From Mustelus asterias (taxonomy: Eukaryota): a stretch of DNA of 64,000 nt. Where the stretch lies: contig NC_135830.1 in NCBI RefSeq assembly GCF_964213995.1, forward strand, positions 12,338,001 to 12,402,000, written 5' to 3'. Made by a program: the position numbers and the translations under genes. Below the pieces are notes generated by a model that worked only from the letters and a program-made list of their open reading frames with translations, was not told the DNA's origin and made no database searches. Below, in pieces: positions 6,330 to 63,689 of this stretch. Each line of letters starts with the position of its first letter. The stretch's first letter is position 1.

Positions 6330-6944
6330 CCAGACAGGGAGTTACATTTGGCGATCAGCAGAGGGCGCGCTTTCAGCGTTGAACAGAAACGATTAGCCTG
6401 TAACAGTTCACAGAATCCGACAGTGCAGAAGACACCCTTCGGCCCATTGAGTCTGCGCCGACACATGAAAGGCGCTGACCTGCCCACCTAATCCAACTTG
6501 CCAACAGAATCGAGCCAGCCAGAAGTCGAACTTGGAATAATCTGATCCGTAATCAAATGCATTATCCATTGCGCCACTGGCCTACAGTTACAGGACCATT
6601 GCTAAAATGACACAGCACAACATTCAACAAGAACAGATGAACAGCAACTGAGAAATTGAATGAGGTCTGTTTTAACTTGCATAACCTTTTCGTGTCTGTC
6701 TAAATTAATGAGCTACACTTCCTCTTTCTACAGTCTGTTTCTTGGTCGCATTTACCATAGCCGGTGCATAGTGTCTAATTGGTCAGAATGTGTTGCTGGA
6801 TTAGGCATAGTTTGTAGAAAATAATGCATTTCACAGCGCACCGATTACACTCTCTTAGTTACAGCAGTTTATTTTCCTTTCGATTGAATATTTTCTGACA
6901 AAATTGACAACCCAGTGTTTTCGCCTCAATATAACCAGGCTTTA

Positions 6945-33151: not shown

Positions 33152-33224
33152 AGGCTCTAGCGAGAATTGAACTCGCGACCCCTGGTTTACAAAACCAGTG
33201 CTATAACCACTGAGCTATGGAGCC
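33152..33224 (-). tRNA. tRNA-Thr(TGT) with substitutions in the acceptor and D stems (possible pseudogene)
   Basis: ggctccatagctcagtggttatagcactggttttgtaaaccaggggtcgcgagttcaattctcgctagagcct. Confidence 0.8.
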
Positions 33225-34950: not shown

Positions 34951-35338
34951 TAACTTTCAATTTTCAAAACCCATCAACTCATCACTGTGGCTCCAATGGT
35001 ATCTACGTACATTGCATCCACAGGTTCCCCTTCATCCACAACACAACGGAGTCCTGTAAGGGACTTAGGAATGGCCCCATTACTTTAAAATTCTTTGTTT
35101 CCCTCATTTAATCTCTTCTGATTTCCACCCGGCCAGAGGCCTCCCCTCTTGTTATGCTGCTGGATAACACTTGTTTAAAACCTCCTACATTTCTAACAAT
35201 TCCCAGTTATTCCCAACGAAAGGTTATGGAGCTAAAATATGAGATTTGTTTTCCTGACTTTCTGAGTTTTTCCAGCATTTTCACCTTTCACTGCAGAAGT
35301 CTGAGCAGCTTTGAATGGTGAATAACTTCACCAGCAGC

Positions 35339-35430
35339 GGCTCGTTGGACGAGGGGTATGATTCGGGCCCAGGGTGTCAACATCCACAAACTTGCAAGCG
35401 ATCTCGGGTTCACATGCCGGGCTAGAGCCC
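35339..35430 (+). pseudogene. Degenerate tRNA-Pro pseudogene (AGG at the anticodon position) with an 18-nt intron-like insert
   Basis: ggctcgttggacgaggggtatgattcgggcccaggg[tgtcaacatccacaaact]tgcaag...gagccc. Paralog of 47633-47722. Confidence 0.7.
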
Positions 35431-36267
35431 TCATTCTGCTGTTGTTTCGTATTGGACAAGTCATAGGTTTTATATATGTATTTTTAGTGCAAACGGTGGG
35501 ATTGGTTTACGTGGGATTTGGTTTGAGAACCTGAACACACAGTGCAGGCAATCTATCAACACAACACTCACACAAGAAAATCATGACATTAAAAGGTTAA
35601 TATGCTTATGGTCATTCACTTTATTTCTGTTCACCAGTTTAGAGGACCCCATGTTAGTTGGTTCAGACAGCTGGCTGTGTGTATATTGTTATTCATACGT
35701 GGATTGTGGATGTGTACCCCACTCGCTATTTCTGCTTTCTTTGTCTCTATATATCTCCCGCAGACGCTGTCAGTCTCTCTGACTGATTTTATGACGTTGA
35801 CCTCTTTTGCTCCTTGCTCTCTCCATTCTTTCGCTGTCTGTGTGTAACCGAGGTTCACTGGATTCATTTCTGCGTTTCTCCTGGGAGGAGAGATTCAGTG
35901 GGATGAGTATGTTTGCTCTGGAGTTTAGATTAATCAGAGGTGATCTTATTTAAAAGCATGAAACTGGGAAACAGTTTGACAGTGTAAATGTTGAGAGGCT
36001 GTTCCCCCCAACCCTGGCGAAATTATTAAGAACAAAAACACAGGGTGGATGATGTAAGAGGAGTTTGGAATGTTTGGGAGAGGTGAAGCTTGGAATTGGA
36101 AGATGGGAATGATGCAATTGAAGATTGAGAAGGATGGATAGGAACCTTGGGAATTATGTAGGTCGATTCATTGTAAACTTTGAAATCAGAACAAGCTGAG
36201 ACACCAGATGAAAAAGCCATATTTGGCTCTATGCATTTTAGGTTATGGAAAGCAAGTTCGCCCATGT

Positions 36268-36332
36268 GCCCGGCCAGCTCAGTCGGTAGAGCATGCGACT
36301 CTTAATCGTGGGTTCGAGCCCCACGTTGGGCG
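36268..36332 (+). pseudogene. tRNA-Lys(CTT) pseudogene with 8-nt deletion
   Basis: gcccggccagctcagtcggtagagcatgcgactcttaatcg^tgggttcgagccccacgttgggcg. The 3' anticodon stem/variable loop is missing. Confidence 0.85.
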
Positions 36333-38009: not shown

Positions 38010-39086
38010 TGATGATTTATTGCTCTCGTGCAACACATGAATTAAGGAGAGGGGGCATTGCTTCCTGATCGAAAACGGGAGCGATACTTGTGGCAGATTG
38101 AATAGCAAAGAGGAAAAATCTGCACGATTCCACAATCCTGTCAACTACCCACAACAATCCATTTACATTAAGAAGTCTCACAATGCCAGGTCGACTTGGA
38201 GTCAGGAGCTTTCGGGGCGCTGGTAAAACATGATGCTGTGAGACTTCTTATTATGCCCACCCCAGTCCAACGCCGGTATCTCGACCTCATACTTACATTG
38301 CAATTGCTGGTAAATCCTGTCAGAATGAGTGAGTTACCTTCTACTGCATTAAGTTTCACTGTCGCTCACCACATTCAAAAAGCAATGTTTGTTATAAACC
38401 TTATTGTGGTAAATCTGTTGAAAAACTTCAGCTTATCACAGCTCCGCTTTCATCTCATTGGAAGCTAATGTGAAAAGATGAACAATTTCAAAGCTGAACA
38501 ACATGCACGAGACTGGAAGGAAATGCGACTGTGAATAATTGACACTGCATATTCCTGTACTCAGTATCTGGGAGAATCAGGAAGATGAAATCCTGGTGGT
38601 CCACTGTTTAGGATTCGGCGCTTTCAGGGTCATAGATCGGCTTCGATATGCTAAGATTTAAAGTTCTTGATAATCCATTGAACAAACTTGAATTGTTTCC
38701 TGATCGAAAACAGCTCTATCAGAAGCAGTGGAGTTAGATCTATATTTCTGTCCGAATTGGAAATGTCACATGGGCAACTGTTCAAGAACAAACACAGATA
38801 GTGAAGGACAGTGATAGGCTGCAAAGCGCTGCCAATAGAGATGGGGATACAAGGTCAAATCTGTATGACAATGGGGTACATTTTATCGATTAGATTGACA
38901 CAAACATCTCCTAGACCTGGATCCAAATCTCAGCCAAATCACAAGAAAACATCTCGCTAACTTAAACGCTAAGCTCTCCGACTTCACTCAGAAACCAGTT
39001 ACGATGAGACAAAGCGGCATGCAATCTGACCGCTCGATCCCCCTCAATAAAACTACATTGAATCCCGAGGACCAACTGACAGCTGA

Positions 39087-39158
39087 GGGGGTATAGCTCA
39101 GTGGTAGAGCATTTGACTGCAGATCAAGAGGCCCTCGGTTCAAATCCGAGTGCCCCCT
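39087..39158 (+). tRNA. tRNA-Cys(GCA), apparently intact
   Basis: gggggtatagctcagtggtagagcatttgactgcagatcaagaggccctcggttcaaatccgagtgccccct; T-stem ctcgg/ccgag is fully paired. Confidence 0.93.
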
Positions 39159-40194
39159 TTCTTGTTTAATTGATACTTTTCTTTTCAATTCCAACTGTCT
39201 TTCATTGGCTGCAAAGCGCGTGGTGACGTCCAGCAACCGGGAAAGGCGCGACATGAATACAAGTCGATCTTTCTTGAATTATCTTTAATCCGAATCCTTT
39301 GGCTACTGACCCTCATCAGTGGAAACAGTTTGTCCCTATCTACTTCATCAAGCGGCCCTTTCCCTTGTTAGCAGAAGCGGGTAACCACGAAATCGCAGCA
39401 ATACTGTGGGGAGGGAAATAGTCAAGGGGCTTGCATAGTATTGCAAACGATGTGGTCATGTTGTAGTTCTCGACTATATTTTACGAAAAGAGAATTAGGG
39501 TTGGATACATCCAGCACTCGCTGATACCCTGATATGGTGTGTCTTAGTTTCAGTGGCGGAATTTCGTCCTGCGTTCAACTCGTAAGCAAATGTTTGGTGG
39601 CTCACTACCATCCAGAGGCGGAGGTTGTACTTTTATTTTCCCGACCAGCATTCATTGTCGCGCAGTTCCGGCTTGTGAACCTAGGCAACAATAAAAATAT
39701 TTCTCAAATGTTGCCGTTCTACTGTGGTCAGGTGTTGTCAACATTACTTATTTAATGACTATTCGTATCATACATATCACATGGTATAATATATATTCAT
39801 TTCAAACATGCAATTAAAGTTCAGAATTAGAGTCTTTGCTGGATGTGTTTGTGTGTCAGTTCTCCGATGAGTCCTCATCTGAGACTGGGAAACAATCTCT
39901 CAGTATTCTGTCGGTTCAATAAGATTGCTTCTCAGTCTTCTAAACTCCAGGGAATTTCAGCCCAATTTGCACAGCCTCTCATCCCAGGAGAACTCTCTCA
40001 TCGCTGGAACCAACCAAGTGGACCGTCTCCAATGGAAGGATAGCCTTTTTTCCAAAGAAAAGCCTCGTGGATATCAAAAACGCTCCGAATATTTCACAGT
40101 TGCTCCTAACAAAACCCTGTATAAATGTAAATTGGCGTTTTTATTCTTATACAGCAATCTGCTGGCAATAAAGACCAAGATGCCATTTCCCTTC

Positions 40195-44504: not shown

Positions 44505-45985
44505 AGAATTCCAAAGATTCACAAGCCTTTGAGGGAAGAAATGTCTCCATATCTCAGTCATAAATGGCTGAAACGCTATCCAGAAAATGTGAGCCCAGAG
44601 TACCTTACTGAGGCACGTTTTGCCACCGTATAACTGTAACATCACTCATTTGCCATGGCTAATCCATATAGCCTACAACAGCTGCACCATGCGTGTGACA
44701 GTGGACGCAGAAAAGCAACAATATGCCAGTGGCGACTTTGTTGAGGGCATTTTTTCAATAAATGGCGAAGAACAAAGTAACATTTTGTCTGCTCCAATCC
44801 AGTTCAGATGCAACAACGATCTCGAATCCGGGAAAATTAAAACAAAATATTAATTTCGATGATGTTTCGACCTGATTTTGAATCGGGGAGCTCATCGTAT
44901 ATGAAATGAACATGTTAACTCCTACAATCCAGAAACTCTGCTCACTACTATTGTGCCCGGTCCAGAATATCAAACCGTGCAGTCTGATTGCAGTTTAAAT
45001 CCTTGTTTTCTGGAATTACAATTCTGTTGACAACCTTAGCCATGTGGCAGAGTCATCGATCTCACATAAGATTCAGAAAATAACATTTGTCACGAATTTG
45101 CTCTCTTTCTCCATGACTGCAGTTGCAGAATATTATTCAAGCACTGGAAAATTGTAAATGCCACATGGCGGTGAGATAGTGTGATGCATTAATATTTAAT
45201 AACAAATAGAGTTGGGACAGTTGCTTTGAAAAGGTTTTGTCAGTTTTTTTGAACACAATAATCAGTATACTTCAGGAACACAGGTGACAAATGGAAGTGT
45301 TTAGAATTTGATGCGTGTCCACAGATTCTGCCACACCTGCTGAGAATTTCCACCATCTCATGCTTGTATTATAAATACAGGTTTTATCAGAACATAAAAC
45401 GGCAAGACGGCAATGATAAATGAAATAGTCCCACAAGCTGTTCGCCTGTAACTTTCTATTTCCAAAACCCACCAATCTCATCATTGCTGATCCTGTGAAA
45501 CTTACCTTGTAAAACACGGCAGGCATTCATCTCTCAAAGAACTGAAACGCCTCAAATGTGAACTATCTGCTCTTAATCTCAGGACTTTGCAATTATAAAA
45601 ACAGCATTCTGGTGGAAGTTTAACTCTGTCCTCAATCCACTGATCTTTGCCGACTTGCTGTCTATTTCCCTCATTGAACACATTTCAGGTTGGGACAGAC
45701 AGATTCCTGATCTTTCCGGGAAAGAAGAGGCGTGTGCAGGAAAATGGCAACCCAAGATCAAACATGGGTTAAAGTTTCGAGTTCAGTTATTGAGTTTAAT
45801 AATATTTGAAATACATAAATTGTTACAAATAATATGTTAGAGATAAATGTTCAATAAACTAACGTCGGCTAACAGTAGAGGCAGAAACACACGATAAGTC
45901 TTTTTCAATGTTGCCCAAGGACTCAGTGACACTCAGAAACCGAGAGACAATGAAAGCAGATGGAGAGAAAAAGAAGCGAAAGCGC

Positions 45986-46059
45986 AGTCCCTGGATGCTC
46001 TCGAACCACTAACTTTCCGGTTAATAATCGAACGTGCTAACCAATTGCGCCACAGAGAC
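45986..46059 (-). pseudogene. tRNA-Asn pseudogene (anticodon GTT>ATT)
   Basis: gtctctgtggcgcaattggttagcacgttcgattattaaccggaaagttagtggttcgagagcatccagggact. Confidence 0.8.
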
Positions 46060-46447
46060 TGAGACAGCTGCAGCCCACATGGCATCCTAAATCAGGGTGT
46101 CAGCGTGTTGGCTGCAAATTCGACGCCAATTCAATTTTCACCAAACCTGTCACAGTAAGACCAAATGATGGCATCGTTTACAAATCTAAACATGCATTTC
46201 TTTTAAATTTTACCCCACAGTGTTGCTGTGTGTCATGGTGAATCCCTTCTCCTAACATGGGAAAAGGGCCGTTTTAATAGAGCAGGGAGGGACAGACTGT
46301 TTCCACTGACAGTAACAGAGGACTGGGATTGAAGATCATGAAATGTTTGCATTTATATAGAACCTCTCCCGACCACCGCACGTAACAAAGCGCTTTCCAG
46401 TCAAATACGGGCAGTTTTAATTGAAAAAAAATTAATTAAGCGCGGAT

Positions 46448-46518: not shown

Positions 46519-47632
46519 TTAATACAAGCCCTCCGTTTTGTCGCTCCTTAGTGCTCTGTCTCGCGTGGTGTATGCTTATGTTTGCTCCTCTGTGTGCGTG
46601 ACTGTGCTTACGTACGCCAAGGGCGTGAACACGTTTTTTTTACCATCACACACTCTATTCACTTACTTCATAAATCTTCATGATGAATGTACATAAGATG
46701 GCAAAGGCTTAAAGTTGCGAGATGAAATTGACCCTTTCCGTTATTTGTGAGTGGAGACAGCTTATTGACTGAGTTCCCGTATGTTCCATTGTGAAAGATG
46801 TTCAAACATTTTCTTTGATCAACATTTAAACAGACAGCGGATTCACTCGGTGTGACGGTGGGTTCCAGTTCTATATCTCTGATCACAGCATCAATTCATG
46901 TCACTTGCTGTGAACCAATATTTCTAATAGGTTGGATGCTCCAATATTTTTAATACGTTGGATGTTTAATCTAATTTACTTCATTTTATATTTCATTATT
47001 TCATCTCAGATCTATTTCCACCAGAGGCAAGTCTCTCTCTCAAGATGTTCTGTTTAGGTAGAACATAAGTTAGTCCTTCATTCAGTGGCAACAACGATTA
47101 CTTTTCGCTGCAGTATGAAAGCGGCAATGACGTGAAATAATCACACAAGCTGCTCATGTGTTCCTCTCAATTCCCAAAATCCACCAACTTCATCACTGCA
47201 GTTCTCTGTAATCGTTGTGCAGTCCACTCACCGGTTACCTATTATCCGCAGCACACGTGACTGCTTCAAAGGTCTTGTGCATGATTTCATTGTGCGGTGC
47301 AAACATTCTGTAATACTCTGCTTTCCTGACGCTCAGGCCATGGACCACAAAGTACTTGCTCATTTATCTCTCTTGAATTGTACCCTATCAGGGCCCTTTC
47401 CTGTTGGTGTGTTTCCTAGCTCCTGGGTATCACTTGTTTAAAACTTCCTACATTTCCAAACTTTACCAGCTTAAATGAAAGGTTGTCGAGGTGTAAGAAG
47501 AGAGTCCTTTCTCTGTGTGCACTTGCTGCCTGACTTCCTGAGTGTTTCCAGCGCTTCCAACTTTCACTGCAGCTGTCTGATCAGATTTGTGTGACAATAT
47601 AATATCCGTATTTGAGCAGCTCTGTCAACAGC

Positions 47633-47722
47633 GGCTCGTTGGTCTAGGGGTATGATTCTCGCTTTGGGTGTTATGATTCGCAAAACTGCGAGAGGTCCCG
47701 GGTTCAAATCCCCGACGAGCCC
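47633..47722 (+). tRNA. tRNA-Pro(TGG) with 18-nt intron at 47669-47686
   Basis: Exons match vertebrate tRNA-Pro(TGG) except for one T-stem mismatch (ccccg vs cccgg). The insert tgttatgattcgcaaaac lies one base 3' of the anticodon. Confidence 0.88.
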
Positions 47723-49076
47723 CATTGTTGTTGTTTGCGATGGCAAAGTCTTGTTCATTACTTGATGAGTTTACCTGCGGTTTCGTTTGAGAAACTGACA
47801 ATACAGGGGATCTAATAACACAACGCACTCAAAAGTATTTAAAAAGTTGACCCTTCTTTTGGACATTCCCATTATTCCTAGTCAACGATTCAGAGGACCC
47901 AATGCTTGTGGGTTCCGGCCGCTGGCTTTGTGTGCACCGTTATTCATTCATACGATGTGGCTGACTCCCCCACGTACTGTCTATATCTGTCTCTCTTTGT
48001 TTCTGTGTATCGATCTGTCTTTTTCACTCTCTCAGACTCTCTCTGTACCTCTATCAACTTTCCATATTGTGTTCTTATTTCCCTCTATTCTCGCAGTGTC
48101 TGTGTAACCAAGATTCACTGGATTGATTGCTGTGATGAGACAGTTGCCCTTGGAGGAGAGATTTATTGTGACTACCCTGTTCTCTCTCGAGTTTGGAATA
48201 ATGAAAAGTGATCCCACTGAAAAGTCTGCAACGGCGAGACTGTTTGACAGTGTACATGCTGAGAGATTGTTTCCACCCCCCCCCTCACACACTCGCCTCC
48301 CTACACCCCTCCACCGCATCCCCCCCCCCCCCGGCCCCCTACACCCCTCCTCCTCCCCCGCCTCTTGCTCGAGTCTGGAGTGTTTTAAACTGGGCTCACA
48401 ATATCCGGATAGTACGTCAACCATTTAGGACCGAGGTGAGGAGAGAATTCTTCACTCAGAGACTTGTGAATGCTTGGAATTCTGTAGCCCAACGGTCTGC
48501 GGGTCCTCAACCAGTGAGAATATTGAATACTGAGAAGGAGAATTGTTTTGAACTCGAAGGGAGTTAAGGGATTCGGGATTTGGTGGCAAATTGGTGTTGA
48601 ACGTGGGATTCACCGTGATCTTATTTCATGGTGGAGGAGAGTTGAAGGGAAATATGACCCACTCCTTCTCCATCGATTCTGTCCATGGCAACAGCAACCG
48701 TGACAGCATTCCTTTTCTACAGGTAAATTTGACCTTTGGTCCCAGCACTGAACTGATGTTTTGTGGAGGCGTGGGATCGAGTCCCACTTTTTTTAAATAT
48801 TTCAATTGATTTAGTTTAGATTTCATGAAATACTTTTGTTCGATCATGCCATGGCTCAGATTTAATGCAGCAGGAAACATCTTATTCACTTGGACAAAAG
48901 GAGCCAGCAGAGACGATGTAAATACAAGTTGTTCGGGACAATTGGCAGGATTGTGGAATGGGATGGAAATTTAATCCTTATTTATCAAAGTGGCACAAGT
49001 ACCACTCCTGTTTTCGAGTAGGAAGTAATTTCAGCTCCTCTTCATTCATGTGCTGCACGACAGCAATAGAGTTGCA

Positions 49077-63616: not shown

Positions 63617-63689
63617 GGCTCCATGGCTCAGTGGTTAGAGCACTGGTCTCGTAAACCAGAGGTCGCGAGTTCGATCCTCGTTGGAGCCT
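63617..63689 (+). tRNA. tRNA-Thr(CGT), apparently intact
   Basis: ggctccatggctcagtggttagagcactggtctcgtaaaccagaggtcgcgagttcgatcctcgttggagcct; acceptor stem is fully paired and a T-run follows. Confidence 0.9.

Follow-up and report, generated by a model that had tools for sequence, protein, structure and literature searches.

Accounts of the spliced tRNAs of vertebrates usually draw on human and mouse and count four families, and descriptions of the human set name Tyr-GUA, Ile-UAU, Arg-UCU and Leu-CAA, with introns in five of six Arg-UCU genes and five of seven Leu-CAA genes (PMC10275265; PMC8479045). A tRNA-Pro(UGG) gene of the shark Mustelus asterias has an isotype outside these four: its body and anticodon are those of tRNA-Pro, matching the intronless Pro genes of the same genome, and an 18-nt insert interrupts it one base 3′ of the anticodon. 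The question raised by this locus is whether the insert is a chance lesion or the mark of a class of spliced tRNA genes and, if the latter, how such a class arose. The gene lies in a 64,000-nt stretch of DNA (the window), a tRNA-rich part of contig C71 (six ARAGORN calls) in a 3.68-Gb genome, and its insert is one member of a large tRNA-Pro intron family, not a product of chance.

The tRNA-Pro(UGG) gene and its neighbourhood

ARAGORN run with intron search gives a score of 108.5 to a tRNA-Pro(tgg) whose 18-nt intron follows nt 37, which places the insert at the 37/38 site where the initial annotation had put it. Without intron search, 47633-47722 is miscalled as Gln(ttg), and Rfam at its gathering threshold gives no match to tRNA in this interval. 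Such miscalls recur among intron-bearing Pro genes, which ARAGORN assigns to Gln, Ala, Leu or Arg according to the options chosen, so that shark annotations may give a distorted count of isotypes. The parts of the gene are as follows.

47629-47632, + strand: 4-nt 5′ leader, common to the family and to the intronless retrocopy L031
47633-47722, + strand: tRNA-Pro(UGG) gene, 90 nt (ARAGORN with intron search)
47633-47668, + strand: 5′ exon, with the 5′ strand of the acceptor stem and the D arm with the A box
47665-47667, + strand, within the 5′ exon: anticodon UGG, with G37 at 47668 and U32 at 47663
47669-47686, + strand: 18-nt intron at the canonical 37/38 site, one base 3′ of the anticodon
47687-47722, + strand: 3′ exon with the B box
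47723-47764, + strand: family 3′ trailer
47758-47764, + strand: site of the family TTTCTTT run, mutated in this copy; three retrocopies end there
47857-47860, + strand: nearest downstream T4, where Pol III could next terminate

The 5′ exon has the same sequence in 22 of the 30 nearest loci and equals the 5′ exon of intronless genes on C3. Within the intron, the bases face the anticodon loop as had been claimed from the sequence: the antepenultimate A (−3, 47684) stands opposite U32 (47663) and can pair with it, and A, A and C at −4 to −6 stand opposite U33, U34 and G35. Folding of the naked stem-loop does not give this canonical anticodon-intron register as the structure of lowest energy (−7.8 versus −9.0 kcal/mol; P(32:−3) = 0.18), the register lying 1.2 kcal/mol above the predicted minimum. 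The same test applied to the Arg-UCU and Ile-UAU introns, which are also present in this genome, gives 0.0 and 0.24, and because these control introns fare no better, the folding test is non-discriminating.

Two blemishes pointed out in the initial annotation, a T-stem mismatch and the lack of a clear T4 terminator, are real. The first comes from a G64C change at 47713 that leaves a C50·C64 mismatch and is private to this copy, C being found there in one of the 30 nearest loci. As for the second, the first T4 lies 135 nt past the gene, and the TTTCTTT run of the family is mutated here as well as in its two or three closest sisters; L253, L254, L264 and L267 are the loci without the run. The A and B boxes are intact. 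Taken together, the mismatch and the lost terminator mark the flagged copy as probably a slightly damaged, weak member of its family, and that it still yields a tRNA is possible, if somewhat doubtful.

The remaining tRNA-like features of the window are a paralog within a segmental duplicate and six other genes or relics, all six intronless.

35103-36009, + strand: segmental duplicate of 47359-48277, carrying the paralog (self-BLAST)
35339-35430, + strand: decayed paralog (pseudogene), with an insert at 35375-35392, AGG at the anticodon position and broken stems
6510-6584: decayed Arg-ACG
33152-33224: Thr-UGU
36268-36332: relic with a deleted anticodon arm
39086-39159: Cys-GCA
45984-46060: Asn-like
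63617-63689: Thr-CGU

The window thus belongs to a duplicated tRNA array. The paralog had been cited as a sign that the insert runs in a family, and it does carry 18 nt at the same site, with 68 of 90 aligned positions identical to the flagged gene. However, it has AGG at the anticodon position, broken stems and no ARAGORN call with or without intron search, and it sits in a duplicate of about 0.9 kb (971 columns, 65% identity). It is therefore a pseudogene copied along with its segment, and was dropped as independent evidence.

Family size, conservation and pairing

Copies were counted with exact genome-wide patterns spanning the anticodon stem, covering inserts of 13-18 nt, with the reversed pattern as a control. 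The tRNA-Pro pattern has 171 matches with an 18-nt insert (none in the reversed control) and 63 with a 13-17 nt insert (one in the control), spanning UGG, AGG and CGG, although these counts may be inflated, many matches lying on small scaffolds that are possibly haplotigs. C71 alone holds 32 intron-bearing matches and C85 another 26, 58 on the two scaffolds together. The initial annotation had staked its reading on further intron-bearing Pro copies being present; the genome search found hundreds of matches, a larger family than had been guessed, and 234 of them rule out the insert as a one-off duplication. On the other side, the intronless Pro junction has 10 exact matches, or 27 with up to two mismatches; perfect Pro 3′ exons number 109, and intronless loci are 8 among the 100 matches listed. 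Intron-bearing copies are the majority of Pro gene matches in this genome. About eight intact intronless Pro genes, with T4-T7 terminators, occupy single loci on C3, C4, C10 and C17, and since all three Pro anticodons are represented among them, Pro splicing is not forced.

The suggestion of a spliced class outside the human four has thus grown into a family of three Pro anticodons and several intron lineages, for which we infer splicing. We consider it likely that these UGG, AGG and CGG genes, with introns of 13-18 nt at the 37/38 site, are transcribed by Pol III and spliced by TSEN and RtcB to the same mature tRNA-Pro. In this pathway, Pol III would transcribe the intron-bearing genes, TSEN would measure from the mature domain and cut at 37/38 via the U32:R(−3) pair, and RtcB would join the exons into a tRNA-Pro indistinguishable from the product of the intronless genes. 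With identical mature tRNA-Pro expected from both kinds of gene, intron-dependent modification or regulation becomes directly testable.

A different account sees most intron-bearing copies as silent passengers carried along by segmental duplication, the tRNA-Pro being made by the eight or so intronless genes and the insert being a tolerated lesion. It would fit the intact intronless UGG, AGG and CGG genes with their strong terminators, the many decayed copies, the in-window pseudogene among them, and the weak terminators of the UGG array family. The pattern of conservation speaks against it. Among the 30 nearest loci, a set biased by the query, exon positions vary by 0.9% and intron positions by 14%. 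A selection test was then based on 48 array loci picked by pattern only, 45 of which could be placed, with scoring of exon positions outside the pattern. In pairs whose flanks are near saturation (57-63% identical, against a shuffle baseline of 57%), exon identity is 89-91% and identity at free intron positions falls as low as 40%, the 355 pairs of the test not being independent of one another. In a bin of 15 pairs with flanks 70-80% identical, exon identity drops to 80%, that is, decayed copies. Of the 45 array copies, 10 have a mature body identical to the intronless one and 21 are at most one change away from it. The Pro family is thus one of birth-and-death turnover with a maintained core.

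The pairing register is maintained as well. Pairing was tallied over 54 distinct loop-plus-intron types from near-intact genes, and is possible at 32:−3 in 48, at 33:−4 in 53, at 34:−5 in 45, at 35:−6 in all 54, at 36:−7 in 9 and at 37:−8 in 50; the same 48 types keep an intron purine at −3 opposite pyrimidine 32. The −5 base tracks the wobble base, being A or G in 27 of 30 UGG types and T in 14 of 15 AGG types, and among CGG types G at −5, for a 34:−5 pair, occurs in just four of nine. When the types are collapsed to six intron lineages, 3.4 of four pairs can form on average, versus 1.9 ± 0.4 after shuffling (p = 0.0002); of eight registers tested, the −3 register scores highest. Failures of the anticodon-intron (A-I) pair are confined to five CGG types on C85, which have T at −3, and one decayed type. 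Human TSEN is described as requiring an A-I pair of pyrimidine 32 and purine −3 for 3′ cleavage (PMC8479045; PMC10275265). The Pro family has the canonical TSEN-type features, namely the 37/38 site, the A-I pair, complementarity to nt 33-35 (bulge-helix-loop) and an intact mature domain, and cleavage by TSEN is suggested by the A-I pair together with one precisely intronless retrocopy.

The exon conservation beside near-saturated flanks and the register kept across six intron lineages, along with retrocopies that point to transcription and an Arg-UCG family in which one exact intronless gene stands against 52 intron-bearing matches (both below), make silent passengers an improbable explanation of the family.

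As a separate observation, a Pro(CGG) subfamily (L083-L086 and L093, on C85 and C103) has T at intron position −3 and five other anticodon-intron pairs. Its 3′ exons are mostly perfect and its genes have T4 terminators, which makes it a natural test of the TSEN requirement.

Retrocopies as probable traces of Pol III transcripts

Dispersed Pro copies are chimeras consisting of a few-base leader, the gene and a trailer up to a T run, followed by a SINE or LINE; one SINE of this genome is presumably of the shark HE1 type. This layout is common to retrocopies of intronless and intron-bearing Pro genes. For intron-bearing copies on the large chromosomes, 21 loci were inspected, and in 12 of them a SINE head begins at most 35 nt past the end of the gene. 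Chimeric retrocopies of intron-bearing genes suggest past germ-line transcription of these genes. U6-L1-type chimeras, retrocopies joining a Pol III RNA to a LINE, offer a parallel: there as here, a full small RNA forms the 5′ part, ends at a T run and is joined to a 5′-truncated LINE or SINE. In contrast to U6-L1, the small RNA here is a pre-tRNA with leader and trailer, joined to a CR1-like LINE or a tRNA-derived SINE.

With so many dispersed copies joined to a SINE or LINE, one might take the family itself for a tRNA-derived SINE or a SINE head rather than tRNA genes. Array copies, however, have hundreds of flanking bases in common on either side (300 of 300 tested) but no shared tail, and intronless genes and other isotypes yield the same chimeras, so that SINE/LINE fusion appears as a genome-wide side product. 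Largely on the array flank homology, the SINE reading was set aside as very improbable.

Returning to the intron-bearing genes as transcription units, the retrocopies also indicate where transcripts may end. Three of them (L247, L249 and L250) carry the trailer of the flagged gene's subfamily, and all stop at TTTCTTT, about 40 nt past the gene; this non-canonical run probably maps the Pol III stop of the UGG subfamily.

Retrocopy L031 (C3:136.70 Mb) bears on splicing itself. It combines the 4-nt leader of the family with 41-43 nt of the family trailer; precisely the 18 nt of the intron are missing, and the copy continues into a 5′-truncated LINE fragment with an RT domain. It is the sole carrier of the family trailer among the 27 intronless matches, and among the 30 of 32 trailer matches that were fetched, the array copies all keep the insert or are truncated, none being intronless. 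The simplest reading, to which we lean moderately, is that L031 derives from a spliced precursor not yet trimmed at its ends. The alternative, to be taken seriously though with somewhat less weight, is that ectopic conversion removed the intron from an intron-bearing retrocopy: the distance from L031 to the intronless C3 genes is 5.5 Mb, a rough count gives a random insertion about a 1% chance of landing this near to one of four sources, and intronless copies in decay are clustered around their sources. Template switching could be another route to the same intron loss. A target-site duplication of at least 8 nt was looked for around L031 and none was found.

Several minor features of these chimeras may be recorded here. 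The L031 insertion (L031:1077-1153, C3:136.697 Mb) has an inverted duplicate (354 nt, 96%) that starts at most one base from the 3′ splice site. For most decayed chimeras of intronless Pro genes the source gene is no more than a few Mb away, a strong local bias of retrocopies, seen in these regions:

C3:128-147 Mb, C4:147.3-147.8 Mb, C10:112 Mb and C17:70.9-72.2 Mb: locally clustered chimeras (L121-L137)

In addition, L057:620-1100 (C14:65.108 Mb), L133:1375-1546 and L041 hold head-to-tail chains of different pre-tRNAs with short spacers. Their contents are an intron-bearing Cys/Tyr-like gene, an intron-bearing Pro, an Arg-ACG-like gene and Thr-UGU, then a SINE; Pro with Leu; and Pro with Val. 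They are possibly fossil products of RNA ligation or of template switching.

Arg-UCG introns and the origin of the Pro intron

A second family shares the condition. Arg-UCG with a 19-nt intron has 52 genome matches against none in the control, with G at −3 opposite C32 in 50 of the 52, and a single exact intronless gene, which is intact (L178, C24:13117669); intronless Arg-ACG has 77 matches. In 38 sampled stretches of C85 and C71, Arg-UCG is intron-bearing in seven of seven cases, and Arg-ACG, Gly, Leu-UAG, Ser, Thr, Lys, Cys, Asn, Met and Val are intronless.

L140:9812-9904: example of an intron-bearing Arg-UCG gene; the family lies on C85 and related scaffolds

These genes resemble the four human families in their short 37/38 intron, their pyrimidine-32/purine(−3) pair and their mixture of intron-bearing and intronless members, and differ from them in isotype, being Pro with three anticodons and Arg-UCG, and in number, with hundreds and tens of copies, respectively. 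Budding yeast tRNA-Pro(UGG) carries an intron as well. It has the same anticodon and intron site as the gene studied here, although no homology is shown or expected, and in the shark AGG and CGG genes also have introns and intronless genes coexist with them. Ten yeast tRNA families have introns, and recent gains have been described for Ala-UGC of Lachancea thermotolerans and Gly-UCC of Kluyveromyces lactis (PMC4090602). As in those gains, the intron here may be restricted to a clade, with relatives having the isotype without it, and anticodon switching spreads it; the differences are that the host is a vertebrate and that both states occur in one genome, a situation called uncommon for genes of one origin in the same work (PMC4090602).

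Shark genomes have been reported to contain abundant, expanded intron-containing tRNA loci and large tRNA clusters (Squalomix, bioRxiv 10.1101/2025.06.08.657570). The tRNA text of that preprint gives no isotype for the introns and no test of selection or splicing; its Fig. 3A or supplements may give isotypes. A search of the literature turned up no publication that attributes introns to the Pro or Arg-UCG tRNAs of sharks or other fishes, and automatic catalogues (GtRNAdb, RefSeq) may list the genes. What is real in the present genome is a known kind of intron on tRNA families unreported as carriers in vertebrates, dominant here and under selection. Pro and Arg-UCG introns probably account for a large part of the surplus of intron-containing tRNA loci reported in sharks. 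With most Pro and almost all Arg-UCG genes intron-bearing in a jawed vertebrate, the spliced set is shown to be labile, and the system offers a natural test of tRNA intron gain, of spread by anticodon switching and of loss by conversion.

As to how the Pro intron arose, the single-copy loci are the most informative. L061 (C19:64.52 Mb) is an intact intron-bearing Pro(AGG) pair with T5 and T4 terminators, located about 15 kb upstream of TNPO3 (identified with Pfam and PDB) and also upstream of a multi-EF-hand gene. The two 18-nt introns of the pair are unrelated to each other except at the pairing positions, which makes them old. We take the EF-hand gene to be calumenin; a PDB search with it returned only generic EF-hand matches. 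Human intronless Pro genes presumably lie beside WNT11, RCSD1 and OPN1SW/CALU, the last of these being a Pro-AGG gene. If so, the TNPO3-CALU site is intron-bearing here and intronless in human, which means gain or loss at one orthologous site. TNPO3, CALUA and SWS1 are named together in the glossary of a flyingfish paper (PMC8294118).

One possibility is that the Pro intron is ancestral in jawed vertebrates at some loci, mammals having lost it by conversion and sharks having kept and amplified it. The AGG pair, with its old introns at a single-copy locus between TNPO3 and the multi-EF-hand gene, is in keeping with this, as is conversion that homogenises tRNA families, a process that has been proposed (PMC4090602) and of which L031 may be an instance. 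On the other hand, the other single-locus Pro genes are intronless, one pair lying about 27 kb from a Wnt exon and another about 20 kb from a weak CAP-ZIP match; 48 ORFs neighbouring the C10 and C17 intronless loci gave no Pfam hit, the C17 neighbour having a sub-threshold CAP-ZIP_m match alone (E 0.013). We regard an ancestral intron as a reasonable possibility that falls somewhat short of even.

The other possibility is a gain in the cartilaginous-fish lineage, once in Pro and once in Arg-UCG, followed by spread through duplication and anticodon switching. It would account for mature bodies identical to those of intronless genes, for the tight intron lengths (13-18 nt) and shared pairing signature expected from few origins, and for the presumed intronless state of the human Pro-AGG gene near OPN1SW/CALU. 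The UGG-type introns on CGG copies (L014/L017) represent anticodon switching inside the array, and sharks are described as outstanding among vertebrates in intron-containing tRNA loci (bioRxiv 2025.06.08.657570). The intron lineages are, however, mutually saturated, so that a single gain cannot be demonstrated. We put the chances of a lineage-specific gain at about even. Under either history, DNA duplication in tRNA arrays combined with anticodon switching would have spread the intron, with birth-and-death turnover of the copies.

Tentatively, a fuller scenario may be drawn, in which sharks gained introns in Pro (three anticodons) and Arg-UCG, most Pro and nearly all Arg-UCG genes came to depend on TSEN, the Pro intron traces to the TNPO3-calumenin locus where human is intronless, and retrocopies keep both unspliced and spliced precursors. 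If true, this would be a datable birth of a tRNA intron in a vertebrate, with both states in one genome.

A last observation concerns the intronless genes. In L037:568-640 (C4:147.247 Mb), a Pro(UGG) isodecoder that has no intron, the base of the anticodon stem shows a compensatory G-C swap; this gene adjoins an AGG gene near a Wnt exon, and presumably matches a human isodecoder.
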